A stretch of DNA of 33,778 nt, taken from positions 1 to 33,778 of the IMG/VR virus record IMGVR_UViG_2531839450_000016; one strand, given 5' to 3'. This document shows, piece after piece, positions 7,525 to 29,808 of the stretch. The notes beneath the pieces were generated by a model, which made no database searches, was not told where the DNA came from, and was given only the letters and a program-made list of their open reading frames with translations. The position numbers and the translations under genes are program-made. Origin of the DNA: a virus. Its lineage: Duplodnaviria; Heunggongvirae; Uroviricota; Caudoviricetes. Each line of letters begins with the position of its first letter. Position 1 is the first letter of the stretch.

Positions 7525-8097
7525 TCAGGGGGATTCATTGCTCTTATTTGCCGGAAATTTTCTATAAATTGTGGAAACACCCACATCAAAAATCAGTGCA
7601 ATACGCTGTCTTGATTCTCCGGCCTCGAGTAAACGTCCAATCTGTGCCCACTGTTCGGTGGTCAACTTAGGACGGCGTCCACCTACTCTGCCTTTAGCAC
7701 GAGCTGCAGCCAGCCCCGCCCTGGTACGTTCAACTATCAGTTCGCGTTCCATTTCAGCCAGGGCCCCCATGACATGAAAAAAGAAACGGCCCATTGGGGT
7801 GCTGGTATCAATACTGTCAGTCAGGCTTCGGAAATTCACGCCACGCTGGCGCAGCTCTTCTATCAGCGTAACGAGATGCCGCATACTGCGCCCCAACCTG
7901 TCCAGCTTCCAGACAACCAGAGTGTCACCTGCCGATAATGTCCTGAGCAGTTTTTTCAGTCCCGGTCTGTCGGACTTAGTGCCACTGATTTTGTCCTCAA
8001 AAATCCGCTCACATCCCGCGCAGTTCAGTGCATTACGTTGCAAATCGGTGTTCTGGTCATTTGTTGACACGCGTACATAGCCAATAAGCATGATCAA
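7525..8097 (-). CDS. Serine DNA invertase (Hin/Gin/Cin/Pin family)
   Basis: 190-aa ORF with the resolvase/invertase catalytic N-terminus (GYVRVSTNDQ...) and C-terminal HTH (SRQRIALIFDVGVSTIYR); lies beside a segment bounded by inverted gix/cix-like sites. Confidence 0.9.
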   Translation of the reverse strand: MIMLIGYVRVSTNDQNTDLQRNALNCAGCERIFEDKISGTKSDRPGLKKLLRTLSAGDTLVVWKLDRLGRSMRHLVTLIEELRQRGVNFRSLTDSIDTSTPMGRFFFHVMGALAEMERELIVERTRAGLAAARAKGRVGGRRPKLTTEQWAQIGRLLEAGESRQRIALIFDVGVSTIYRKFPANKSNESP

Positions 8098-8146
8098 TCC
8101 CCTGAATAAAAACCGGGGATGATGCCAGTTAGCTGTTACCTCTGCA

Positions 8147-8172
8147 TTTTCTTAAACGTTGGTTTGGGAGAA
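8147..8172. repeat. Invertase crossover site 1 (cix/gix-like 26-mer)
   Basis: TTTTCTTAAACGTTGGTTTGGGAGAA; its reverse complement shares the 14-nt TTCTCCCAAACCAA with the site at 9677-9702; fits the TTnTnnnAAACC-nn-GGTTTnnnAnAA pattern of Din-family sites. Confidence 0.7.
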
Positions 8173-8526
8173 GCGGCAAAACGAAATGTGGGTAACGAGC
8201 AAAACCAAATTCCGGATATGGCGGCGTTTGCCAGTTCACTTTCATCAACGGGTTTTCAAAAACTCCCTTCAGGTCTGATTATTCAGTGGGGTATAGTCAG
8301 TGGAGCATCAAACTATACGGTGACTTACCCGGTAACATTCCCAAATCGTTCACTTGCGCTGTTGGCTGTACCACATACAACGTCGGTGGCGGGTATATCT
8401 GCAATGGGCATAGCGAACTGTTCTGATATCAGCAAATCACAGTTCTATATAATTGTTGGCGGTATATCTCAGGGAGAAATTGTCAAATATGAAAGGTCCT
8501 GTTTTTGGGTAGCAATCGGTGTATAG
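8161..8526 (+). CDS. Silent alternative tail-fibre C-terminal cassette (would fuse to H after inversion)
   Basis: Open frame begins at the crossover site with GLGE, the same junction residues as in H (..AYLGLGELS..); shares LIIQWG with the expressed H C-terminus; has no constant N-terminal part in this orientation. Confidence 0.6.
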   Translation, partial: GLGEAAKRNVGNEQNQIPDMAAFASSLSSTGFQKLPSGLIIQWGIVSGASNYTVTYPVTFPNRSLALLAVPHTTSVAGISAMGIANCSDISKSQFYIIVGGISQGEIVKYERSCFWVAIGV

Positions 8527-8534
8527 GTATATCT

Positions 8535-8930
8535 ATGATTTATTTCTCAAAATCGACTAATGGTTTTTTCTTCGATGGTATAAACAGTGACATGCCTGCT
8601 GACATTGTTGAGATATGTACAGACTTATACAATGAATTAATTGCCGGACAGCAGGAAGGGGGTAAATTAATTACGTCAGATGAAAATGGTTTACCGGTAC
8701 TAAAATCCCCGGCGATTGATTATGTCGCACGTGCGGAAAATCAGCGAATGCAGTTACTTGCTCATGCCGATAATGTCACAGCTGACTGGCGAGTGGAATT
8801 AATGCTTGGTGATATTAGCAGTACAGATAAAGAAAAACTATCCGCCTGGATGGACTACAAAAAAGAAGTAAAAGCCGTCGACACTTCGACGGCTCCTGAG
8901 ATTAGCTGGCCTGAGTTACCGGAGGTGTAG
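8535..8930 (+). CDS. Alternative tail-fibre assembly chaperone
   Basis: ORF starting MIYFSKSTNGFFFDG..., ending ...VDTSTAPEISWPELPEV, the typical C-terminus of tail-fibre assembly proteins; follows the silent cassette. Confidence 0.7.
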   Translation: MIYFSKSTNGFFFDGINSDMPADIVEICTDLYNELIAGQQEGGKLITSDENGLPVLKSPAIDYVARAENQRMQLLAHADNVTADWRVELMLGDISSTDKEKLSAWMDYKKEVKAVDTSTAPEISWPELPEV

Positions 8931-9339
8931 GCCATTCAATATCTGGAGCACTGGAGGTATCCACCAGTTCCAGTGCGTCCAGGTAATCCAGCCACAAATT
9001 ATATAGTGCCAGTTCCTCACCTTTCAGACGACCAATAGCTGCTTTGCCAGGCCATTGCTTACTGTTCATGTATTCGTTGGCCTGATTAAGCAATAATTGC
9101 CTTTCTGTTTCTGCCTGTTGAATAAGTTCTTCATGTGATGGTGGAGGTATTAGTGCCCATGTGGGTAATCCATTTTTTCCTGCAACACGAATTTTGTCAT
9201 CTGGGGGCGTATTGATTGCAAATTCATTATAAACATCATCACTGACAGCCAGAGCATCATCTGGCCATGAATTTGCATTAATGTAATCATCCTTAAGCGC
9301 AGGATTCACAAAAATGTTTAAAGATGGACTATAAAACAT
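8902..9339 (-). CDS. Tail-fibre assembly chaperone (expressed orientation)
   Basis: 145-aa ORF immediately downstream of H, ending ...LVDTSSAPDIEWPTPPV. Confidence 0.8.
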   Translation of the reverse strand: MFYSPSLNIFVNPALKDDYINANSWPDDALAVSDDVYNEFAINTPPDDKIRVAGKNGLPTWALIPPPSHEELIQQAETERQLLLNQANEYMNSKQWPGKAAIGRLKGEELALYNLWLDYLDALELVDTSSAPDIEWPTPPVTQAS

Positions 9340-12587: not shown

Positions 12588-13162
12588 ACCGGTCCTCCGG
12601 TTGTGTCGCCGCCTTTCAGGACGCCAGTATGCTGATGCGCATCAACCACGATCCCCCTGGAACTCATTGCACCGCCGCCCTGGGTAACGCCACCATTGAT
12701 CACCACTTCGCTGTTAATACGCGTGCGGTCAGCCTCCAGCACAAACTCACTGGTTTTCATGGTGATGTTGTCAGCGGCCTCAATGACCATTGATTTGATG
12801 CCCCTGACATACCAGCGCCCGGTGGCGGGTTCGTATTCAAACCAGCCGCCGTCAGGATGTTCTGTCACGCAGGCGTCTGCCGACGTCGACGGTGGCGCGA
12901 ACTGATTCGAATAGACAGCGGGCAGCGCAAAGGCGGTTTCCAGATTTCCGCCCAGACTCAGCAGCACCACCTGCTCACCTTCCGATGGTCGCCACCATGT
13001 CCGGGCATTCCCGGCACGCAGCGTCAGCCAGCTGATCCAGTTGGTTTCAAGCTCGCCCGTTTTCACCCGGCAAAGCCAGTTCTCCCGATCCACTTCGGTG
13101 ACTACACCAGTGCGGATCAGGTTGGTGATAAGGCGCATGATTTCGGTTAGTTGTGCGTTCAT
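12584..13162 (-). CDS. V: Baseplate spike protein gpV
   Basis: 192-aa ORF, first gene downstream of the late-promoter dyad; P2 synteny. Confidence 0.85.
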   Translation of the reverse strand: MNAQLTEIMRLITNLIRTGVVTEVDRENWLCRVKTGELETNWISWLTLRAGNARTWWRPSEGEQVVLLSLGGNLETAFALPAVYSNQFAPPSTSADACVTEHPDGGWFEYEPATGRWYVRGIKSMVIEAADNITMKTSEFVLEADRTRINSEVVINGGVTQGGGAMSSRGIVVDAHQHTGVLKGGDTTGGPV

Positions 13163-13205
13163 CTACTAAGGATGATGAATTATCGACTTCTACGGTAGAT
13201 CAGGT

Positions 13206-13231
13206 ACATTGTGCTATAAATGGCACAATGT
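13206..13231. promoter_or_regulatory. Candidate Ogr-binding dyad of the late promoter for the V-W-J-I-H operon
   Basis: Perfect palindrome ACATTGTGC-N8-GCACAATGT containing TGT-N12-ACA, about 56 bp upstream of the V start codon. Confidence 0.5.
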
Positions 13232-13254
13232 ATCTTCCAAGGATAAAATTTAAG

Positions 13255-13914
13255 ATGATGGTTCTTGACGAACAAAAATATAACGAAATATTGAAAACAA
13301 TGGAAAAACGAGCTAGCCGCTCTAAAATTACTACGCTCTTATTTTTATATATTTTATTAACTGCTGTACTCTGCATTCCTGCAACTTATATTTTTTATAA
13401 AGCAGAAAGTAATAAGCGTGACAATGCACTTGCCTCACTTAGATTGAGCTCTCAGCAAATAGAATCTGCTTTCGAAAAGTTCACCATCATGCAACAGTTA
13501 ACTGATAAACTTGCACAAGCATCAGAAAACCTCAACGCTTCAAAAAATTCAAATCCGATAATCAAAAAAAATGAATCAGGTATTAATTCAACATACCTAA
13601 ATACTAAAAGCACCTTTGAAAAAGCCATTGAAACCGCGGCACCTTATTTACTAATCTTATCTGGGATATTATTCACTGGATATATACTTCGGTTATTTAT
13701 TGTGTTCATTAAATACAACATGCAAATGAGCAACGACTATGACAACCAGAGAATTGCATTCTTACTATCGCAAGGTGATACTGATGAGTTCGGCAAAATC
13801 ATTCAAACATTACGTGAACACAATGTAAGTTTCGAAAAAACCCCCAATCTACTTCAAGAAAAAATCATCATAGAATTAATGAGTCTTTTACGCTCATCCA
13901 AAAATAAGAGCTAA
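13255..13914 (+). CDS. AT-rich accessory (moron) gene encoding a two-transmembrane-helix protein of unknown function
   Basis: ORF on the strand opposite to the flanking late genes; AAGGA ribosome-binding site before the ATG at 13255; hydrophobic segments ITTLLFLYILLTAVLCIPATYIFY and PYLLILSGILFTGYILRLFIVFI; strongly A/T-biased codon use. Confidence 0.6.
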   Translation: MMVLDEQKYNEILKTMEKRASRSKITTLLFLYILLTAVLCIPATYIFYKAESNKRDNALASLRLSSQQIESAFEKFTIMQQLTDKLAQASENLNASKNSNPIIKKNESGINSTYLNTKSTFEKAIETAAPYLLILSGILFTGYILRLFIVFIKYNMQMSNDYDNQRIAFLLSQGDTDEFGKIIQTLREHNVSFEKTPNLLQEKIIIELMSLLRSSKNKS

Positions 13915-19484: not shown

Positions 19485-21251
19485 ATGAACACCACACTGA
19501 CACCCGCAGATCTCGATCCCCGTCGGCAGGCCATGCTGCTGTACTTTCAGGGATACCGCGTCGCCCGCATTGCTGAAATGCTGGGCGAGAAAGTTGCAAC
19601 CGTTCACAGCTGGAAAAAACGCGACAAGTGGGGTGACTATGGGCCGCTGGATCAGATGCAGCTCACCACCGCCGCACGCTACTGCCAGCTCATTATGAAG
19701 GAGCACAAAGAAGGGAAAGATTTCAAAGAAATTGACCTGCTGGCACGCCAGTCTGAGCGCCACGCGCGGATCGGCAAGTTTAACAATGGCGGCAACGAAG
19801 CCGACTTAAACCCTAACGTTGCCAACCGCAACAAAGGCCCACGTCGTCAGCCGGAAAAGAATGTTTTCACCGATGAACAGATTGAGAAACTGGAAGAAAT
19901 CTTCCATTCCTCTATGTTCAACTACCAGCGTCACTGGTGGGAAGCCGGAAAAACCAACCGCATCCGCAACCTGCTGAAGTCACGCCAGATCGGCGCGACC
20001 TTTTACTTTGCCCGTGAAGCCCTGATTGACGCCCTGCTGACCGGGCGTAACCAGATTTTCCTTTCTGCCAGCAAGGCTCAGGCCCACGTCTTTAAACAGT
20101 ACATCATCGACTTTGCCAAAGAAGTGGAGGTGGAGCTGAAAGGCGATCCGATGGTGCTTCCTAACGGGGCCACGCTTTACTTCCTCGGCACCAATGCCCG
20201 CACGGCCCAGAGTTACCACGGCAACCTGTATCTGGATGAATATTTCTGGATACCGAAATTCCAGGAGCTGCGTAAAGTGGCTTCCGGTATGGCTATTCAC
20301 AAAAAATGGCGACAAACCTATTTTTCCACGCCATCCAGTCTGACACACAGTGCTTATCCGTTCTGGTCCGGTGCGCTGTTCAACCGTGGGCGCAACAAAG
20401 CCGATAAGGTGGACATCGACCTGTCCCACAGCAATCTGGCCCCCGGCCTGCTGTGCGCAGACGGGCAATACCGCCAGATAGTCACCGTGGAAGATGCGGT
20501 GCGCGGCGGCTGTAACCTGTTCGACCTTGACCAGTTGCGCATGGAGTACAGCCCGGACGAATACCAGAACCTGCTGATGTGCGAGTTTGTGGACGATCTC
20601 GCGTCCGTGTTCCCGCTCAGCGAGCTGCAGGCAGGCATGGTGGACAGCTGGGAAGTCTGGACCGACTTTCATGCACTGGCCCTGCGCCCGTTTGGCTGGC
20701 GCGAAGTGTGGATCGGTTATGACCCGGCAAAAGGTACGCAGAACGGCGACAGTGCCGGATGCGTGGTGGTGGCGCCGCCAGCCGTGCCGGGTGGTAAGTT
20801 CCGCATTCTTGAGCGTCACCAGTGGCGCGGGATGGACTTCCGCGCCCAGGCTGACGCCATCAAAAAACTGACCGAACAGTATAACGTGACCTATATCGGC
20901 ATCGACTCGACCGGCGTCGGTCACGGGGTTTACGAGAACGTGAAAGCGTTTTTTCCTGCCGTCAGGGAGTTTGTCTACAACCCCAACGTTAAAAACGCCC
21001 TGGTACTCAAGGCCTACGACATTATCAGCCACCGCCGTCTGGAGTTTGACGCCGGGCACACCGACATTGCGCAGTCATTTATGGCAATCCGTCGCGCTAC
21101 CACTGCCAGTGGCAACCGCCCGACCTATGAAGCCAGCCGCAGCGAAGAAGCCAGCCATGCCGATCTGGCCTGGGCAACAATGCACGCACTGTTTAACGAA
21201 CCGCTGCAGGGCGAGTCCGCCAATACCAGCAATATTGTGGAGATTTTTTGA
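19485..21251 (+). CDS. P: Terminase ATPase (large) subunit gpP
   Basis: 588-aa ORF, divergent from O and followed by Q with a 4-nt overlap; P2 synteny and size. Confidence 0.9.
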   Translation: MNTTLTPADLDPRRQAMLLYFQGYRVARIAEMLGEKVATVHSWKKRDKWGDYGPLDQMQLTTAARYCQLIMKEHKEGKDFKEIDLLARQSERHARIGKFNNGGNEADLNPNVANRNKGPRRQPEKNVFTDEQIEKLEEIFHSSMFNYQRHWWEAGKTNRIRNLLKSRQIGATFYFAREALIDALLTGRNQIFLSASKAQAHVFKQYIIDFAKEVEVELKGDPMVLPNGATLYFLGTNARTAQSYHGNLYLDEYFWIPKFQELRKVASGMAIHKKWRQTYFSTPSSLTHSAYPFWSGALFNRGRNKADKVDIDLSHSNLAPGLLCADGQYRQIVTVEDAVRGGCNLFDLDQLRMEYSPDEYQNLLMCEFVDDLASVFPLSELQAGMVDSWEVWTDFHALALRPFGWREVWIGYDPAKGTQNGDSAGCVVVAPPAVPGGKFRILERHQWRGMDFRAQADAIKKLTEQYNVTYIGIDSTGVGHGVYENVKAFFPAVREFVYNPNVKNALVLKAYDIISHRRLEFDAGHTDIAQSFMAIRRATTASGNRPTYEASRSEEASHADLAWATMHALFNEPLQGESANTSNIVEIF

Positions 21252-22276
21252 TGGGAAAGAGTAAGAAGAACCGCGCTGCGTCGACGAAACAGATCCAGCA
21301 TAAAAGCCAGACTTCAGCCGAAGCATTCAGCTTCGGTGATCCCGTTCCTGTTCTGGACCGCCGCGAACTGCTGGACTATGTGGAATGCGTACAGATGGAT
21401 CGTTGGTATGAGCCGCCTGTGAGTTTCGACGGACTGGCGCGAACCTTCCGCGCCGCCGTGCATCACAGCTCACCGATTGCAGTGAAGTGCAACATTCTGA
21501 CCAGCACCTACATCCCTCACCCGCTGCTCAGCCAGCAGGCTTTTTCGCGTTTTGTGCAGGACTATCTGGTTTTTGGTAACGCCTACCTGGAGAAACGCAC
21601 GAACCGCTTCGGTGAAGTTATCGCCCTTGAGCCTGCACTGGCAAAATACACCCGCCGCGGGTTAGACCTGGATACCTACTGGTTTGTGCAATACGGTATG
21701 ACAACCCAGCCGTATCAGTTCACGAAAGGCAGCATTTTTCATCTGATGGAACCGGACATTAACCAGGAGATCTACGGCCTGCCCGGTTATCTTTCTGCCA
21801 TTCCGTCAGCTCTGCTCAACGAGTCCGCCACGCTGTTCCGCCGCAAGTATTACATTAACGGCAGTCATGCAGGATTCATCATGTACATGACCGATGCTGC
21901 GCAGAACCAGGAGGATGTGAACAACCTCCGCAATGCGATGAAAAGCGCCAAAGGTCCTGGTAACTTCCGTAACCTGTTTATGTACTCGCCTAACGGTAAA
22001 AAGGACGGGCTTCAGATTATCCCGTTGTCAGAAGTGGCGGCGAAGGATGAGTTCCTGAATATCAAGAACGTGAGCCGGGACGACATGATGGCGGCGCATC
22101 GCGTGCCGCCTCAGATGATGGGGATTATGCCGAATAATGTCGGGGGATTTGGGGATGTGGAGAAGGCCGCAAATGTATTTGTGCGTAATGAGTTAATTCC
22201 GCTTCAAAGAATTATACAAGGATTTAACGGATTTATTGGTGACGACATCATAAACTTCGAAAAATATAAATTATAG
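21248..22276 (+). CDS. Q: Portal protein gpQ
   Basis: 342-aa ORF downstream of P; P2 synteny and size. Confidence 0.9.
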   Translation: MMGKSKKNRAASTKQIQHKSQTSAEAFSFGDPVPVLDRRELLDYVECVQMDRWYEPPVSFDGLARTFRAAVHHSSPIAVKCNILTSTYIPHPLLSQQAFSRFVQDYLVFGNAYLEKRTNRFGEVIALEPALAKYTRRGLDLDTYWFVQYGMTTQPYQFTKGSIFHLMEPDINQEIYGLPGYLSAIPSALLNESATLFRRKYYINGSHAGFIMYMTDAAQNQEDVNNLRNAMKSAKGPGNFRNLFMYSPNGKKDGLQIIPLSEVAAKDEFLNIKNVSRDDMMAAHRVPPQMMGIMPNNVGGFGDVEKAANVFVRNELIPLQRIIQGFNGFIGDDIINFEKYKL

Positions 22277-22280
22277 AAAA

Positions 22281-22300
22281 TAGGCCTGTAATCAGGCCTA
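22281..22300. terminator. Hairpin between the convergent Q gene and the SIR2-like gene (possible bidirectional terminator)
   Basis: TAGGCCTG-taat-CAGGCCTA, located 5 nt after the Q stop and 6 nt before the SIR2-like stop. Confidence 0.45.
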
Positions 22301-22305
22301 GTATA

Positions 22306-23385
22306 CTAACATTGTTTACATAAATCAGAAAAACTACCACCGAAATAATACAGTGCAGATTTATCATTTAGTTCTTTAAAAACTTCACACGCACGCTGGT
22401 GTATCTCAATAGCACTAGATTTATTTCGCCCAATAATAACAGTCTCTTTTTCAGTACTATCGCCATCCAGAAAAGTCTTCAAAAGAAAATTAATAATAAA
22501 GTCTTCCTTTGGGAAAGAATAACCTATAAAGATCAACAGATCTGCTTGTCTCAACTGGGTAGAGGATTTCACAAAAGCTGTCTTAAAGTATTTATCCCCA
22601 TAGTCTTGTTCATTTGAAGGCAAGATAATATTTGGAACAACTTTTGCGTTTAATAATGAATCATAATCTATTTTAAAACCATCCCTTGCAGCAACAACCT
22701 CAAATCCTCCATTAAGCTTATACAAACCTATACCTTTAGGCTGAGGACACACTAATATATTATTATGATGCACAGGAAAACCCCGATTAACTGAACGTTC
22801 AGGGAATGCATGATGTAGCACTTTATCAATAACTATATCGTAGTTTGTTGTGACTACATCCAGTGCTGAAGCTTCCTGTAAACTCTTAAAGAAAGAAATA
22901 ATATTCCTTTTATTCTGCCCAAATTTTGCAGTTTGACTTAGCTTTAAATCATTTGCCGGTATTTTTTTTGCAAACTTATTTTTTACATATAGTTTTACTT
23001 GTGCCTCAAACAACTCAAGCGTATGCCTATCAAGATACGACGGCAATAAACTTGGATATCGCTTATAAACATCCAATGCATATTTAAAACTCTTGAAAAC
23101 ATTAGCTTTGTCATCTAAACCTGCATTAGCATCCGCCCATTTAAATTTAAGACTGTCGAACAAAGAAAAAAAACCATACTCATCAATATTTTCTAATGCT
23201 TCGTCTTCAGAGATGGAAAAGACTTCATTACTCAATGGGTATTTGTCATCCCAGGCTTTAGAAAATCCTGCTCCGAGAAAAACACATACTCTTCGCTCTC
23301 TTATTTTTGATTTCAATGTGGCGAAGGATGTAATTTCTAAATTATTAGGTGTCAAAATATCACCATCATAAGCAAAGCTAGTCAT
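22306..23385 (-). CDS. SIR2-like domain protein (putative NAD-dependent effector), second gene of an accessory cassette
   Basis: 359-aa ORF carrying, in order, VCVFLGAGFSKAW, VVTTNYD, YKLNGG and LLIFIGYSFPKED, which match the motif order of SIR2-like defence domains as I recall them; strongly AT-rich; starts 13 nt after the ATPase stop. Confidence 0.6.
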   Translation of the reverse strand: MTSFAYDGDILTPNNLEITSFATLKSKIRERRVCVFLGAGFSKAWDDKYPLSNEVFSISEDEALENIDEYGFFSLFDSLKFKWADANAGLDDKANVFKSFKYALDVYKRYPSLLPSYLDRHTLELFEAQVKLYVKNKFAKKIPANDLKLSQTAKFGQNKRNIISFFKSLQEASALDVVTTNYDIVIDKVLHHAFPERSVNRGFPVHHNNILVCPQPKGIGLYKLNGGFEVVAARDGFKIDYDSLLNAKVVPNIILPSNEQDYGDKYFKTAFVKSSTQLRQADLLIFIGYSFPKEDFIINFLLKTFLDGDSTEKETVIIGRNKSSAIEIHQRACEVFKELNDKSALYYFGGSFSDLCKQC

Positions 23386-23398
23386 GTTTTTCTCACGC

Positions 23399-24628
23399 TT
23401 AGTTTTTTATATCAAGAAAAGCTGGAACTAATCCAAATTCGCCACGTAAATATTTGGCAGACACTTTAGCATCTTTCCTTACAGAAAATACCGTAGCATT
23501 AGTTATTATCGACGCTTTAGATGAATCCTTGACTATAATATTAAGCTCATCTCTTCTAAACACATCATCTAATAAAGGAATATTATGTGTAGACATAATA
23601 AACTGCACACCATTTTTACGGCAGGTTTTATCAAATATTTTTTTGATTAGTGCACTTGCCAAAGAATAGTGAATAGATGAATCTATTTCATCCACATAAA
23701 GTGTAAAATCATATTCACTAGCCCAAATCAATATTGCTAAAAATGTTAAAACATTTAGTGTGCCTTGGGAAAAAAATTCATCCCTACGGTCAGGGCCTAT
23801 TCTAGTAAAATCACCATCATCATTTTTTATGAGATAAACAAATTTATACTCATTATCTTCGCCAAATCTTACAAATTCAACTTTATCTATATGCAGCGGC
23901 GACTGAATAACCATTTCATTATAGGTATTTAAAATTCTTTGACCACTCTCATTTAATTTTTCATTTCCTTCCTCACCTGATAACTGGCGCTTAAGTTGTC
24001 CTTCAACAAATTTAAGACTTGGATTTTTGAATTTTTCAGAGTAATAAGGCAATTGTTTTAATGCCCAGCGTTGGGTTTCAACAAGAGCATCAATTTCTAA
24101 AGATTTTGCAAAAGTTACAACAGCTCCACTTTCTCTTAAGACAGGATTAATCAACGACTCGTATTTTTTTAAGTCGGGCTTTTTGAAAACCAACCCATTT
24201 TCATTGCGAATAAAAATACATTGTTCCCTTGCATTTTTTCTTATCGGTCTAATGTATAAATACTCATCTACAATAACTTCATTTAAAACTGACACACCAT
24301 AACGGACGAAGTTTTTTTGCTCTTCATCAATCAGTATCGCTTCATAGGAAGTAGGTTTGTTACGACATTCCTTATTTAGAAGGAAAGGCATATGCAATTT
24401 GTGTAATGTGTCACTATGAATTGAATTTGCAAATTCAGTAATAGCATTTATTAATTGTGTTTTACCAACACCATTTCCGCCTATTAATGCGGCAAATCTG
24501 TTTACTCTTAAACCATTCGCTAATGTCACGATATGTTCAGGATGCTCATCCCCAATTGAGGAAGCAAAACTAAGAACCTGTCTTTCGCGAAAGCTCTTGT
24601 AATTTTCTAAACTGAATGCAACTAGCAT
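23399..24628 (-). CDS. ABC-type (AAA_15/AAA_21-like) ATPase, first gene of an accessory cassette
   Basis: 409-aa ORF; N-terminal MLVAFSLENYKSF followed by Walker A GGNGVGKT at about residue 50; C-terminal LYVDEIDSSIH (Walker B/D-loop) and STHN (H-loop-like); GAGGA ribosome-binding site 6 nt before the ATG; AT-rich. Confidence 0.7.
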   Translation of the reverse strand: MLVAFSLENYKSFRERQVLSFASSIGDEHPEHIVTLANGLRVNRFAALIGGNGVGKTQLINAITEFANSIHSDTLHKLHMPFLLNKECRNKPTSYEAILIDEEQKNFVRYGVSVLNEVIVDEYLYIRPIRKNAREQCIFIRNENGLVFKKPDLKKYESLINPVLRESGAVVTFAKSLEIDALVETQRWALKQLPYYSEKFKNPSLKFVEGQLKRQLSGEEGNEKLNESGQRILNTYNEMVIQSPLHIDKVEFVRFGEDNEYKFVYLIKNDDGDFTRIGPDRRDEFFSQGTLNVLTFLAILIWASEYDFTLYVDEIDSSIHYSLASALIKKIFDKTCRKNGVQFIMSTHNIPLLDDVFRRDELNIIVKDSSKASIITNATVFSVRKDAKVSAKYLRGEFGLVPAFLDIKN

Positions 24629-24748
24629 CTGAAGTCCTCATTTTTGCGTAAAAAACGCATTTTTGACTATTTCGGTAATGTAATCCAGTGCTAACGCAAA
24701 AGCAACTTAACATTTTATGTTATATTATTAATTATGTATCCGCGCGCG

Positions 24749-24767
24749 CTCGTATCCCCGCCACGCC
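24749..24767 (-). other. Candidate cos site (19-nt cohesive end)
   Basis: Minus-strand GGCGTGGCGGGGATACGAG followed by CGCGCGC resembles the P2 cohesive end as I recall it (GGCGAGGCGGGGAAAGCAC then TGCGCGC); located in the Q-to-A interval where cos is expected. Confidence 0.5.
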
Positions 24768-24816
24768 TGCCCGCTTTATGTAGTGGTTTTCATGCACCTG
24801 CATGATCTACGCAAAA

Positions 24817-24836
24817 GCCCGCCAGAACTGGCGGGC
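24817..24836 (-). terminator. Rho-independent terminator downstream of the lipoprotein gene
   Basis: Stem GCCCGCCA / TGGCGGGC (8 bp, 4-nt loop) followed by TTTT on the minus strand. Confidence 0.45.
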
Positions 24837-24940
24837 CTTAACACAAAAGATCCTCAAACGATCATGCGATCTCATGCAGCATAGACATGCGCGTTTATGC
24901 AGAATGTGCAAAATCGTAACATACTCAGCAAGCGTGAAAC

Positions 24941-25618
24941 CTAGAACGTGACAGCCTTGTCAAAGCCAGAAATAATTGTATAGGAAATAGACGAGTTATC
25001 AGCCTTGTTCACTTTGAACTTGGCACCTTTGTAAGCGATAACATCACTTCCCTTAGAATCTACAGAAAAATCTGTTGTAAACGCTGCACGAGCCATATCG
25101 TTTGCAAACTCACGATAGGTAAACTTCATTACACCGTCTGCATTTCCATTGTATTCGATAGTCTTAACCAATGAGTTACTCACTCGACACAGCCCATCAG
25201 GAACACGCTTGATAGAAATTTCTGAGGCTGTATAAGAAGTGCCGTTTGGTGGTGATATCTCATTTTTTGCAGCATCGTAACTTACATAATCAACATAGGT
25301 GCCGATTTGTCCATAGATATTTTTTAGCGCAACAGCTTGAGGATTATGATGATTGCGGTAAATTCCATTCCCTTCGCTGCAATATGTACCTGCAGAGATA
25401 GAAGATAGCGCACCATTAGCCGCACCAAGCTCTAGTACGTCCGTTTTATATCCAGTAGCAGATGTTATGATGGGGTCGCCCATGTAGGCTGTAGCACTTT
25501 GCCCAATAGCAGGCTTCACCACTTCAATAGCTGTGATATTTCGGTTAGAAGCATGAGGCACGCAACCAGTTAGGATTACAGCAAGAGATATAGGTAACGC
25601 AATATGGTTAATTTTCAT
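24941..25618 (-). CDS. Lipoprotein of unknown function (accessory gene next to cos)
   Basis: Likely start at the internal Met MKINHIALPISLAVILTGC (signal peptide with lipobox LTGC); AT-rich; occupies the position of tin/old in P2. Confidence 0.6.
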   Translation of the reverse strand: MKINHIALPISLAVILTGCVPHASNRNITAIEVVKPAIGQSATAYMGDPIITSATGYKTDVLELGAANGALSSISAGTYCSEGNGIYRNHHNPQAVALKNIYGQIGTYVDYVSYDAAKNEISPPNGTSYTASEISIKRVPDGLCRVSNSLVKTIEYNGNADGVMKFTYREFANDMARAAFTTDFSVDSKGSDVIAYKGAKFKVNKADNSSISYTIISGFDKAVTF

Positions 25619-25731
25619 TTTTAGCCTATTATTCTTTTCTTGACAAAAAACGAGGCGATATCTGATTGACATCACCTCTCACTCATATGTAACCCTTTTT
25701 AAGTATTAAAAACAAGCATCTATTGACAAAA

Positions 25732-26317: not shown

Positions 26318-28732
26318 TTAATACAGGTTCCGCCACTTATCATCTTCCTGCAAACGCTGGTTCCGATAGAAGATACGCAGGCCTGCTCCTGACGGAATAC
26401 TGCCTCCGCGAAGGAGTAAATCGACCTCTTTCTCGCTGCCATCAAATCCTCTGGACTTCAGCTCATACACGAGCTGCAGTCGCTGATGGTCTGTAATTCG
26501 CTGTTTGTAGTCTTTACGCCGTTTCGGTTTCACCAGGCGTAACCTTGCTGCCAGTTCCCGGCACTCTTTTTTGCTCATACTGTGCAGGTAATCGTGCAAC
26601 TCCTTGTCATCCATGCGGGTAATATCCGTTCTGGTGTCCCCATCAGCTGATTTATCTTTCTCCTGTTGGTTCAAATTTTCAGCAAGGGGACAGTTATTGC
26701 CACGAGTCCAAGGGGCGCAAGCGCCCTGGTCGGCTACCGCCTCCTGAACGTCAACGGCCTTACGAACCATTTTCCACTTCACTGCATGAGTGCAGATCTT
26801 GCCCTCTGAAATGGGTGACCAGATGCCATAAATACGAATACCGTGATCGCCATAGGCGGTCGGCTCTTCGTTGATTTCATAAGCGGTTCTGATGAGGTGA
26901 TATTTACGGGGAACCAGTACGCCGCCCTGCTTCATGATGTAGGAGGCAAAACAACCAGCATCAGCAGCAGCCAGGATGGCATCAAGGCGCGGGTTATCCA
27001 GTACCGGCGCACCTGCTTTTTTGTCCCCCTGTTGCCTTGCCGCCTGACCAGCCAGCAATCGCAGTTCACGGTAAGCCTGACGCCCCGGAATGCCAAAGAA
27101 GCGGAATTGCTGAACACGATGCAGAGACGCCCAGGCATTAACGTATTCAGCGTTATCACGCAGGGATTTACCCGTTTCCTTGCTGATCTCACCAGCCAGA
27201 CCACGCCCGTCAATGTTCTTACTGATGTATTTCGCGATGTAGCTTGTTGGCGTACCTTTGCGCGGGTTTATCAGCTCAGACTTAAAGCGTGGTCCCGTGT
27301 TATTACCCAGCTCCTCGCGGTCTTCACGAATGGCAAACTTACGCAACAAAGCAGTAATGGCTCGGCGATCTTTTTTGCGCATAAAACACAACAGGTGCCA
27401 GTGAACTGTACCGTCATGATGCGGCTCAGCCACCCGCACGCCATACCAGCGCAATCCGGCTTTGTGCATCGCTTTACGAAATGCAGCAAACATGCCGACC
27501 AGATAATCACTGCTTTGTCTTACCGTCGCGTTTGTCCAGGTCGGGTTTGGTCTGCCGTTATTTAGCGTGGAATGGAAACGTGACGGACAGGTGATGGTGT
27601 AGAAAACGGCGCAGTCACCGCGCATTTCCGCGATAAGCTCCAGACCTTTAACACAGGCCATCATCTCATTGCGGCGATGCGCAGGGTTGCTGCTGCTGGC
27701 GTTTACCACATCCTCCATGTCCAGCGTGTCGCCGTCTTCGTTCACCAGTTCATGAGAACGGAAAAACTCCAGCGACTTACGGCGCTGCTCACGTTTATGC
27801 AACACGGCTTCATAGCTGACATAGGGAGATACTTTTTTGCTGACAAGGCAGACAGCACGCAACTGCTCTTCCCGCCATTCGCAACGCATCTTCCATAATT
27901 TCCGATACCACCAGTCGGCGCATAACATACGCGCCAGCGAACCCGGAATGAGTTCATAAGGCACGGGTTTACGGCGGTTTCTTTTCCGACGGAGTTGCTC
28001 AAACGCAGGCGGGATAACATCCAGACGCAGGGTTTCCGCTGCCACCTTTTCCCATGTCTTGCGGATTTCTTCTGGCGTAACATCATCGGTGGCATACAAA
28101 TCGCCACAAGCTGTATCAAGGCACATGCTCATATGCGCAGCTACCAAGGTGGACAGGCGTTTCACCTGATCCTGACTCATTTCAGGCAGGATCAGCAGGC
28201 CGTCCAGCCCTTCATGGCTTGCCATAAAGCGAAAAGAAGTGGATAGCTGACTGTCGCGTACATGCTCCAGTCGTTCCAAGCATGGCTTAATCGTCTCACG
28301 CAAATAGCGGGAATAAGCCTTTGGCCTGCCCAGGCTGCTGAAGTATTTAATACGTTGCATCAGCGGCTTGCTGATATGGGAAGGCTGGGCGTTGACGTCC
28401 GCCAGAATGGCCATGTCTGGATTAAAACGCTGCTGCTCATGCGCCAGCTTTGCCCGGCTAATTAGCTTATCCTGCTCCATTTCGCGTTGGACAGGATCAC
28501 GGGATTCATTAAAGAAATAACGCTCCCAGACCTGATCACTCAGTGCCTCGCGGCGTAGTTGTTCCTGCTCGTTATCGGCAGCGTACAGAGTGATCAGGTT
28601 TGAAAGCGCAGAAACCGGCGCAACTTCCGCCGGGTCCAGATAAGGGTTAATGGCCTTTTTCGGGCTGTTCCATGAGAATGCTGCGGCGACCTCGTTAAAG
28701 CCGCTGCAGTTGTTCATATCAGCATGGCTCAT
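26318..28732 (-). CDS. A: Replication initiation endonuclease gpA (rolling-circle initiator)
   Basis: Large ORF with a His-rich motif ([14 protein letters not shown]) consistent with a rolling-circle Rep metal site; probable start ATG at 28730-28732, overlapping the Dam stop (ATGA). Confidence 0.9.
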
Positions 28733-29586
28733 GCACGCACTCCGTACACGACGGAACAATCCACGCCACGCGAAGGATCAAATCCTACCCAGCAGCGCGG
28801 CCCGGAAACAGCGATGATTTCTGTTGCTGATTTACTCTCACCAGCTGCTACGCCGATGCTGCGTTTTACCTTGATATAGTGGTGAGTAAAATTGCGATAC
28901 AGCGAACGGATCAGGGATGTGTCACTGTTAGAAACAATGACCGGATGTCCTTCTGATGACCGATGTTCAAGAACGGATGCCAGGTGATACTGGTCATCTT
29001 CAGTAAAGCCGTCAGCGTGATAGCCGGAAAACGTACCGTCATAAGGCGGATCGCAATACACCACATCCCCCGCCTTCAACATCGCCAGCGTTTCATCAAA
29101 GCTGGCGCAGATAAACGTTGCTCGCTGGGCTTTTTCTGCAAAAGCGCGAATTTCTTTTTCAGGGAAATACGGATTTTTATAATTACCGTAGGGAATGTTG
29201 AAATGCCCGCTCTTGTTATAGCGACATAACCCACGGTAACCGTGACGATTGAGATACAGGAAATATACCGCTTTCATGAAATCAGTAATTTCAGTTGAGT
29301 AATTAAACTCCTGCCTTATGTTGTAATAAGCCACCTCCCTGTTTGCGATCTCAAATAAAACTTTGGCGCGAGATATAAACAATTCACAATCAGCGGCAAC
29401 CTTTTTATAGAGGTTGATTAAATCAGGATTAATATCCGCAACCAGATAGCAGGGATAATCCGTCTCCATCATCACAGCACAGGAACCCGCGAAAGGTTCA
29501 ACTAGTCGCGGACCAGCAGGAAGATGTTTTTTCAGTTCGGACATTACGGCGGTTTTATTTCCCGCCCATTTCAGGATGGTGCTCAT
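28729..29586 (-). CDS. dam: DNA adenine methyltransferase (Dam family)
   Basis: From the internal Met: [11 protein letters not shown]... (the N-terminal motif typical of Dam) and DPPY catalytic motif (VYCDPPYDG); start ATG overlaps the stop of the TraR-like frame (ATGA). Confidence 0.85.
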
Positions 29587-29808
29587 ACAGCACCTCCGTT
29601 GTAATGTTTGCCTTTCAGCTCTGCGATTTCCTGACAGGTAATGCAAAGCTGCACCCGGAATGGCACGGCGGCGTGCTGGCGGAATTGGCGCTTCACACTC
29701 AACGCAAAGCACGCGGGACACGCCCGGCGTTTTGGCACGGGCAGCACGGATATGGCGCTGGCGTTCTTCTTCAACGCGCTGCTGTACGAGATCCATTGCA
29801 TCAGCCAT
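29583..29808 (-). CDS. TraR/DksA-like C4 zinc-finger protein, apparently frameshifted in this sequence
   Basis: The N-terminal half in one frame (..LCVECEAPIPPARRRAIPG) and the C-terminal half in the +1 frame (..QLCITCQEIAELKGKHY..) together match the TraR pattern C-x2-C-x17-C-x2-C; the frames switch near 29650-29660 at a CCC/GG run. Confidence 0.5.

Follow-up and report, generated by a model that had tools for sequence, protein, structure and literature searches.

The window examined here is the whole 33,778-nucleotide stretch of IMG/VR virus record IMGVR_UViG_2531839450_000016, and it comprises most of a P2-like prophage. On its minus strand lies a two-gene cassette that joins an ATP-binding cassette (ABC) ATPase to a SIR2 family protein in which an asparagine, N225, stands where the catalytic histidine belongs. 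The ATPase gene comes first (23399-24628, minus strand). It encodes a 409-residue ABC-type ATPase of the AAA_21/AAA_15 group, AbiLi/AriA-like by Pfam and PADLOC, which is the presumed sensor or gate. The SIR2 gene follows after a 13-nt gap (22306-23385, minus strand) and, by open reading frame (ORF) call and translation, encodes a protein of 359 residues, the presumed effector. A GAGGA sequence read 6 nt before the ATPase ATG (24635-24639, minus strand) is a putative ribosome-binding site. The SIR2 and portal genes converge with 29 nt between them, and in this gap a terminator-like hairpin with an 8-bp stem, 5 G-C pairs and a T-run (22281-22300, minus strand) directly follows the SIR2 stop codon. 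The order along the locus is gpA (26318-28759), the presumed cos region (24723-24800), the cassette and portal gene Q (21248-22276, plus strand), and G+C content drops from ~0.55 to 0.33-0.37 over 22-25 kb. The ABC ATPase as operon partner, the prophage hotspot setting and the Asn as a clade-defining change go beyond the preliminary description of this gene, which was concerned with the Asn itself.

The catalytic histidine position of the SIR2 protein

The 359-residue protein matches the Pfam family SIR2_2 (PF13289) with a score of 35.5 bits against a cutoff of 24.5. It has the features of the SIR2 superfamily, namely the SIR2 Rossmann fold with a helical cap, the GAGxS pyrophosphate loop and the Asn of (T/S)TNYD. 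An AlphaFold (AF2) model made from an alignment of 61 homologues was confident (predicted local distance difference test, pLDDT, 91.8). The closest structures found by Foldseek were the SIR2 subunits of SIR2-HerA systems, with E values down to 3e-13. A phmmer search of the PDB with the single SIR2 sequence gave no match and a profile was needed, and no NCBIfam family matched the protein. By Pfam the protein is a bare SIR2 domain, with the ATPase encoded by a separate gene.

Motif positions were checked by translation of the window DNA, and all lie on the minus strand. GAGFS (residues 38-42, 23260-23274) is the Rossmann pyrophosphate-binding motif, in which G38, A39 and G40 are invariant and S42 corresponds to S55 of SaSir2, the SIR2 subunit of a SIR2-HerA system. 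TTNYD (residues 179-183, 22837-22851) holds the conserved catalytic Asn, N181, and T180, a ribose ligand according to the alignment. KLNGGFE (residues 223-229, 22699-22719) contains N225 (codon 22711-22713) at the place of the catalytic His, together with the clade-specific residues G227 and E229. R201 (22783-22785) is a clade-specific, near-invariant Arg where the sister clade mostly has Tyr. PSNEQDY (residues 256-262, 22600-22620) carries Q260 (codon 22606-22608) for the Lys of the P-[ST]-x-x-K found in His-type proteins, followed by the clade-invariant Y262.

The position of N225 was set by a family profile aligned to the PDB sequences of four solved SIR2 enzymes. The profile string LyKlnGGfev falls on LYKIHGSINW of SaSir2 (8yhx), LWKLHGSINW of PsSIR2 (8w9l), LYKLHGSLTW of EcSIR2 (8j4u) and VYKMHGDVEH of ThsA (6lhx), and the TTNYD of the window protein is aligned with the TTNYD of the solved structures. 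Counting along the alignments, N225 equals H152 of ThsA and H287 of SaSir2, and N181 equals N112 of ThsA and N226 of SaSir2. The ThsA and SaSir2 residues reached in this way are the published catalytic residues (PMC11514289). The preliminary description had reported an Asn at the expected His of KLNGG, flanked by intact GAGFS and TTNYD motifs, and both observations are borne out by the translation and by the alignment to ThsA and the SIR2-HerA subunits. It had also allowed for a misalignment of its own, in which a His within VLHHAF or FPVHHNN would prove to be the catalytic one. The protein contains six His residues (121, 191, 192, 206, 207 and 329) and none is conserved, the highest column reaching 28% His. 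Those in the two named stretches (His191, 192, 206 and 207) are 5-24% conserved in the clade and were rejected as alternative catalytic residues. Clearly, because N225 aligns with His in four solved enzymes and no alternative His is conserved, misalignment is excluded, and on this alignment N225 occupies the catalytic His position. The His of K-x-H-G that completes the dyad of SIR2-type NADase effectors (ThsA, DSR2, SIR2-HerA, SPARSA and Avs5) is N225 in the window protein.

In SaSir2, N226 and H287 form the catalytic dyad, and a point mutation of H287 abolishes hydrolysis of nicotinamide adenine dinucleotide (NAD+) (PMC11514289). The nicotinamide ribose is held by the NE atom of H287, T225, E152 and Y352, and the pyrophosphate by S55 (PMC11514289). 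At the positions of T225, E152, Y352 and S55, the alignment gives T180, E127, Y289 and S42 in the window protein. T180, Y289 and S42 are conserved in both the Asn-type and the His-type clades described below. Judged by these aligned residues, the ribose-holding NAD pocket is retained around N225.

The Asn-type clade

Each of the 58 close homologues, the most distant of them at 26% identity, has the motif K-[LI]-N-G-G; this count leaves out three distant outliers (P0064-66) carrying K-L-H-G-S. When one genome per species was scanned, 47 Asn-type loci were found, as well as 31 loci with the His-type K-L-H-G-S-x-N-W. One further locus has Tyr at position 225 and was counted among the His-type group in the locus comparison. 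Asn-type loci occur in Gamma-, Alpha- and Betaproteobacteria, Bacteroidota, Chloroflexota, Cyanobacteria, Nitrospira, Planctomycetota, KSB1 and Desulfobacterota. In an exhaustive search of 50%-identity representatives, which gave 12,122 matches, the top ones were all Asn-type, with the His type starting lower down.

Full-length sequences of 101 Asn-type and 68 His-type proteins were compared for residues that distinguish the two types. Position 225 is Asn in 100% of the Asn type and His in 100% of the His type. Five other positions change with it: 227 (Gly in 100% of the Asn type, Ser in 97% of the His type), 229 (Glu in 97%, Asn in 99%), 260 (Gln in 100%, Lys in 96%), 271 (Phe in 96%, Trp in 97%) and 201 (Arg in 99%, Tyr in 59%). 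The full signature R201-N225-G227-E229-Q260-F271 was found in 93 of the ~101 Asn-type sequences, and its His-type counterpart is Y-H-S-N-K-W. W45, Y262 and Y266 are fixed in the Asn type only, while N181, D183, K223, G226, P256, G288 and D295 are invariant in both clades. Within the Asn type, conservation is 100% at N181 (as it is in the His type), D183, K223, N225, G226, Q260, Y262 and Y266, and 97% at E229.

A neighbour-joining tree was calculated with the six signature columns left out and distances capped. All Asn-type proteins among the full-length representatives (102/102) fell in a single clade, and no His-type protein (0) lay within it. Comparison of the window SIR2 gene with 84-86% identical copies gave a ratio of nonsynonymous to synonymous substitution rates (dN/dS) of ~0.04-0.05, with dS near saturation. 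These results indicate that the Asn is the character of a monophyletic clade spanning many phyla and not a private mutation, and that its recurrence far exceeds what chance would give. In a bacterial clade that is both large and old, the Asn and five further residues are fixed as a set, and the enzyme has therefore probably been rewired and not inactivated.

Two proteins combine features of both types. P0123 has a lone H-to-N change on a His-type background (Y-N-S-N-K-W, LKINGSLNWL) and groups with the His type in the neighbour-joining tree. From its sequence, it is a picture of simple His loss, unlike the six-residue change of the clade. P0113 is Asn-type yet keeps Ser at position 227 (IKLNGSFEIL). 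Either protein could be useful as a natural control, or as an intermediate when the six substitutions are put in order.

Most Asn-type genes are single-domain and stand-alone. No partner gene is shared by the Asn-type SIR2 genes across the 47 loci, and the genes for 208-224 residues upstream at a few of these loci belong to no common family at the BLAST level. The longer Asn-type proteins were searched for fused domains and SIR2_2 alone was found. Outside the gammaproteobacterial branch linked to the ATPase, then, Asn-type SIR2 has no shared neighbour or fusion. Because they are single-domain and lack a common neighbour, the stand-alone proteins appear to act by themselves and, on this comparison of genes, must carry their own activity.

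The neighbourhoods of these genes were also inspected. Association of the stand-alone members with defence islands was dropped as evidence since their contexts are mixed. In Vibrio crassostreae (L002:7277-9619) a stand-alone Asn-type SIR2 gene is followed by an unannotated gene for ~361 residues and then by a DUF4238 gene. The DUF4238 family was validated as anti-T7 defence in the P2 hotspot study (PMC9122126). At another locus a Pat-like protein acetyltransferase (CoA-binding + ATP-grasp_5 + GNAT; L045:2082-4961, minus strand) is encoded two genes upstream of a stand-alone Asn-type SIR2 gene and on the opposite strand, a single case that may be coincidence. SIR2 genes of the His-type sister group are modular. 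Two recurrent upstream partners, of ~675-820 and ~225-237 residues, abut or overlap the SIR2 start (L050, L059, L061 and L067; L058, L068, L078 and L081). The smaller partner is adjacent in 3/4 loci of its family, and in L058 its homologue lies downstream of the SIR2 gene.

The ATPase partner and the prophage hotspot

The ATPase matches Pfam AAA_21 (9e-14) and AAA_15 (9e-10). In PADLOC the ATPase scores best against AbiLi (2e-51); PDC-M12A and AriA (AriA 5e-16) come next. In the family alignment the invariant residues include G50, N52, G55 and K56 of Walker A, S287, G289 and T290 of the signature, D313 and E314 of Walker B, and H348 of the H-loop. A profile of the family searched against the PDB matches PtuA, retron ATPases, SMC and OLD; phmmer with the single ATPase sequence gave no PDB match, and NCBIfam gave sub-threshold matches only. 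Neither Pfam nor PADLOC found a recognisable nuclease or other effector domain in the ATPase.

The pair is maintained beyond the window. In Vibrio the ATPase and SIR2 genes are kept together and overlap by 4 nt, and the pair is also present in Klebsiella. Across Enterobacterales, the matches to the ATPase and those to SIR2 agree in the lengths of their longest contigs, which suggests that ATPase and SIR2 genes lie on the same contigs. Three distant relatives of the ATPase (~25-35% identity) were checked, and each is followed by an RloB gene, as in AbiL/RloAB; in one case this arrangement adjoins an MmeI-type restriction enzyme. The SIR2-linked ATPases of Vibrio and Enterobacterales score 165-194 bits against each other and 79-117 bits against the RloB-linked ATPases. 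This pattern fits a single recruitment of SIR2 followed by co-evolution of ATPase and SIR2. Because the more distant ATPase relatives pair with RloB nucleases, the gene comparison indicates that the effector has been swapped, a nuclease being replaced by SIR2.

The cassette resembles AbiL (AbiLi+AbiLii), RloAB and PARIS (AriA+AriB) in its ATPase-first two-gene operon and intact ATPase motifs. It differs in the second gene, which encodes SIR2_2 and not an RloB/DUF4435/Toprim nuclease. In PARIS, AriB is kept sequestered by AriA and is set free by a phage trigger in combination with ATPase activity (PMC11464382). The AAA15/21 ATPase of PARIS pairs with varied effectors according to the authors, and a SIR2 effector is not among the partners annotated in their phylogeny (PMC11464382).

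The upstream boundary of the cassette is a sequence conserved among P2-family phages (24723-24800). This stretch alone matches 1257 E. coli records as well as Fels-2, RE2010 and Klebsiella P2-like phages, at 93-100% identity. It is taken as the cos region because cos lies between gpA and gpQ in the P2 family (PMC9122126). The cos-proximal gpA-gpQ locus is a validated defence hotspot (PMC9122126), and the cassette is variable cargo within it, between gpA and portal gpQ and beside cos. The pair was found at the same gpA/portal site in 6/6 P2-like IMG/VR contigs. Across these contigs identity is 51-56% for the ATPase and 56-63% for SIR2, compared with 78-99% for portal and terminase. Among 5426 complete E. 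coli genomes the window allele of the cassette occurs in one, strain E9, where it is annotated as 'AAA family ATPase' and 'SIR2 family protein' and where the other side of cos holds different cargo.

The same kind of cassette has been catalogued before. Table S5B of Rousset et al. 2022 lists P2-hotspot candidate #147, with SIR2_2 and AAA_15/AAA_21/SMC_N, 14 occurrences and the remark 'Likely a NADase' (PMC9122126). It shares with the window the two-gene architecture, the cos-proximal gpA-gpQ hotspot and a homologous ATPase. The SIR2 protein of #147 carries LYKLNGGFEV, TTNYD, GAGFSKAWD and PSNDQNY, which places it in the same Asn-type clade, and it is a different allele, clearly diverged by eye from that of the window. 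Candidate #147 was outside the eight additional systems tested in that study, and its Asn was not remarked on (PMC9122126). Catalogue entry #147 was all that a literature search, with subscription journals outside its range, returned for a defence SIR2 without the His or for a system of ABC ATPase and SIR2, and the search found no NADase or plaque assays on this clade.

Other features of the prophage were noted. Between a DinI-like gene and cos is an ORF for 244 residues with a lipoprotein-like N-terminus (..LTGCVPH; 24941-25675, minus strand), for which Pfam, PADLOC and NCBIfam gave no match. A strong GC-rich hairpin follows it at ~24812-24838. E. coli E9 has a DUF8087 gene at this position; because it shares the cassette yet carries DUF8087 instead of the 244-residue ORF, the two sides of cos vary independently. 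Just upstream of gpA in the direction of transcription is a gene for a D12-class (Dam-like) adenine methyltransferase (8e-74) with an N-terminal TraR/DksA-type zinc-finger segment (28729-29808, minus strand). A Hin/Cin-type serine invertase (Resolvase + HTH_7, 2e-53; 7525-8097, minus strand) adjoins oppositely oriented tail-fibre C-terminal cassettes (8119-8526 and 8505-8930, plus strand) and a tail-fibre assembly gene (8902-9339, minus strand). This region (7525-9339), where GC dips to 0.44, looks like an invertible host-range switch. Lastly, an ORF for 253 residues (13153-13914, plus strand) lies on the strand opposite to the flanking late genes in a GC trough of 0.38, has a sub-threshold DUF3112 match, and is possibly cargo, which would make this a second variable site in the prophage.

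Proposed chemistry and alternatives

To our knowledge, every anti-phage SIR2 effector studied (Thoeris ThsA, DSR2, SIR2-HerA, SPARSA and Avs5) has been described as an Asn/His NADase. An exchange of this His for Ala serves as the standard dead control for these effectors. ThsA and DSR2 are like the window protein in being SIR2_2-type and in having the TTNYD Asn, but they carry K-x-H-G with a required His (H171 in DSR2) and have sensor domains in the same polypeptide (SLOG, or a long C-terminal domain); the SIR2 of the window is unfused. Lamassu-Sir2 pairs LmuB, an SMC-like protein with a long coiled coil, with an LmuA that has a C-terminal LmuA domain besides its Sir2 effector domain. By comparison, the window ATPase has 409 residues, its SIR2 is a bare domain, and no Lmu model is among the 25 PADLOC matches listed. 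SIR2-HerA systems (Nezha; PsSIR2 8w9l, SaSir2 8yhx, EcSIR2 8j4u/8su9) have the catalytic His, essential in SaSir2 as H287, where the window protein has N225. Their subunits have the Lys of P-[ST]-x-x-K where the window protein has Q260, and at the position of E229 there is Asn in 8yhx and 8w9l and Thr in 8j4u. Their partner is a HerA (DUF87) hexameric ATPase and that of the window protein is an ABC ATPase. Membership in SIR2-HerA was not supported, as the neighbour in the window is AAA_21/AAA_15 with no DUF87 match in Pfam; the P2 hotspot catalogue has 'SIR2_2 + DUF87' as a separate system (PMC9122126).

A SIR2 enzyme in which an amide replaces the His is SirTM (class M; SpySirTM, 5a3a). Its Gln137 stands for the His, binds the ribose 3'-OH and contacts a conserved Arg (R192), while the conserved Asn is kept (PMC4518038). 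SirTM is a robust ADP-ribosyltransferase with no deacylase activity (PMC4518038). The window protein is like SirTM in having an amide (N225) and a clade-specific Arg (R201), a likeness by analogy only. It falls outside the definition of SirTM, which is Gln for His with a partner Arg, encoded in an operon with macrodomain, GcvH-L and LplA2 genes. N225 and R201, together with the Asn-to-Glu and Lys-to-Gln swaps, are consistent with a SirTM-like rewiring of the active site.

Taking these comparisons together, we give an even chance to the proposal that the window protein is a working but rewired SIR2 and the effector of an ATPase-gated, NAD+-consuming anti-phage cassette of the prophage, acting by hydrolysis or by ADP-ribosyl transfer. 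The ABC ATPase, of the AAA_15/21 type seen in AbiL, RloAB and PARIS, would be the sensor or gate. As in PARIS, it would keep SIR2 switched off, and a phage cue coupled to ATP binding or hydrolysis would release the block. The freed SIR2 would then attack the nicotinamide-ribose bond of NAD+, leading to abortive infection. At the active site the general-base His would be replaced by the amide of N225 within a site that is altered too, with E229 for Asn, Q260 for Lys, R201 for Tyr, G227 for Ser and F271 for Trp. With N225 in place of the His and the surrounding site changed as well, base-catalysed deacylation is unlikely. The part left to N225 is probably no more than a hydrogen bond to the ribose 2'/3'-OH, like that of Gln137 of SirTM. 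The outcome would be either NAD+ hydrolysis by way of another residue or transfer of ADP-ribose to a target, and the sequence comparison points to E229 as a candidate replacement catalytic residue. Enzymatic activity, defence, gating by the ATPase and the roles of E229, Q260 and R201 are what we infer from the comparisons. Of the possible activities of the window SIR2, NAD+ hydrolysis has a chance at or just short of even, transfer of ADP-ribose or formation of another product is a weaker possibility, and a catalytically dead protein is unlikely.

Several points weigh against a working SIR2 in an ATPase-gated defence cassette. Changing this His kills activity or defence in DSR2 (H171) and SaSir2 (H287; PMC11514289), and in FAM118B the change of H206 abolishes the NAD-processing activity of FAM118A/B. 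An Asn at the His position could therefore mean that NAD+ cleavage has been lost. The co-variation of six residues is a two-state split between two clades, which is one evolutionary event and not repeated independent ones. Stand-alone genes have mixed contexts, some with defence-like neighbours (NACHT, KAP NTPase, UvrD, DUF4238) and some with housekeeping ones (AcrB, CoA-transferase). Gating by the ATPase is argued from the PARIS analogy only.

We wondered whether the six residues R201/N225/G227/E229/Q260/F271 mark a new catalytic class of SIR2. Instead of plain NAD+ hydrolysis, such an enzyme would transfer ADP-ribose to protein or nucleic acid, or make another NAD-derived product, with Glu229 and Arg201 serving in place of the His. 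This more specific proposal is offered tentatively.

Less probable is a pseudoenzyme. Asn-type SIR2 would then have no NAD+ cleavage and would be an NAD+- or ADP-ribose-binding sensor, scaffold or regulator, with toxicity coming from the ATPase or another partner. The loss of NADase activity or defence when the His is changed to Ala or its equivalent in DSR2, SaSir2 and FAM118B would favour this, as would P0123, whose lone H-to-N change within the His-type clade indicates that the substitution can arise as simple loss. A premature stop also occurs in one viral copy, on an IMG/VR P2-like contig (L091:5001-6065). This Asn-type SIR2 gene reads 125 codons to the stop where tblastn aligns 355 residues, from a nonsense mutation or an assembly error. 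On the other hand, the Asn-type clade is conserved at the level of a catalytic site across many phyla with dN/dS of ~0.05, and a coordinated change of six residues is unlike decay. Furthermore, the majority of members consist of one domain, stand alone and have no conserved partner that they could regulate, and the ATPase has no recognisable nuclease or other effector domain. The preliminary description had offered altered chemistry alongside a non-catalytic or regulatory fold. The clade signature, the retained pocket, the purifying selection and the stand-alone members lead us to favour altered chemistry over the regulatory role.

An ordinary NADase is equally improbable. In this case the Asn would be a tolerated conservative change, and NAD+ would be converted to ADP-ribose and nicotinamide as in ThsA, DSR2 and SIR2-HerA, product and target being unaltered. 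This explanation overlaps the hydrolysis branch of the rewired SIR2 and differs only in giving the remodelled site no significance. It agrees with the label 'Likely a NADase' that the authors of the P2 hotspot catalogue gave the homologous pair (PMC9122126), with NADase SIR2 subunits being the closest folds, and with the retention of the NAD-binding residues. However, conservation of the His in the sister clade is absolute, and every NADase tested depends on it. Five more positions are fixed in a changed state along with the Asn, with a charge swap among them (Lys to Gln, Asn to Glu, Tyr to Arg), which suggests a changed catalytic arrangement and not a neutral substitution. Least probable of all, and very doubtful, is a cassette without a defence role: it might serve the prophage as an accessory or as a toxin-antitoxin-like addiction module, or be a sirtuin-like protein of metabolism or regulation that is in the hotspot by chance. 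In its favour, about a quarter of P2 hotspot loci hold non-defence cargo such as partition systems and others hold toxins (PMC9122126), and among the stand-alone Asn-type genes some have housekeeping neighbours, including that for the Pat-like protein acetyltransferase. Against it, the AAA_15/21 group that includes the window ATPase is typical of AbiL, PARIS, Septu and retron effectors; RloB nucleases accompany relatives of this ATPase beside restriction-modification genes; the SIR2 fold is closest to anti-phage SIR2 subunits; and within a validated defence hotspot the cassette turns over against a constant phage backbone.

The cassette itself was catalogued as #147, without mention of the missing His. 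If the rewired SIR2 is active as a hydrolase, SIR2 cleavage of NAD+ is possible without the His, which bears on the mechanism of SIR2 NADases. If it ADP-ribosylates a target or uses NAD+ in some other way, the annotation of SIR2 matches in defence islands would change. As the cassette indicates, an ABC ATPase of the AbiL/PARIS type may gate an effector that is not a nuclease. Should the Asn type prove to be a new catalytic class, it would bring a new effector chemistry to ABC-ATPase-gated phage defence and would represent a second, independent origin of His-less ADP-ribosylating sirtuins after SirTM.

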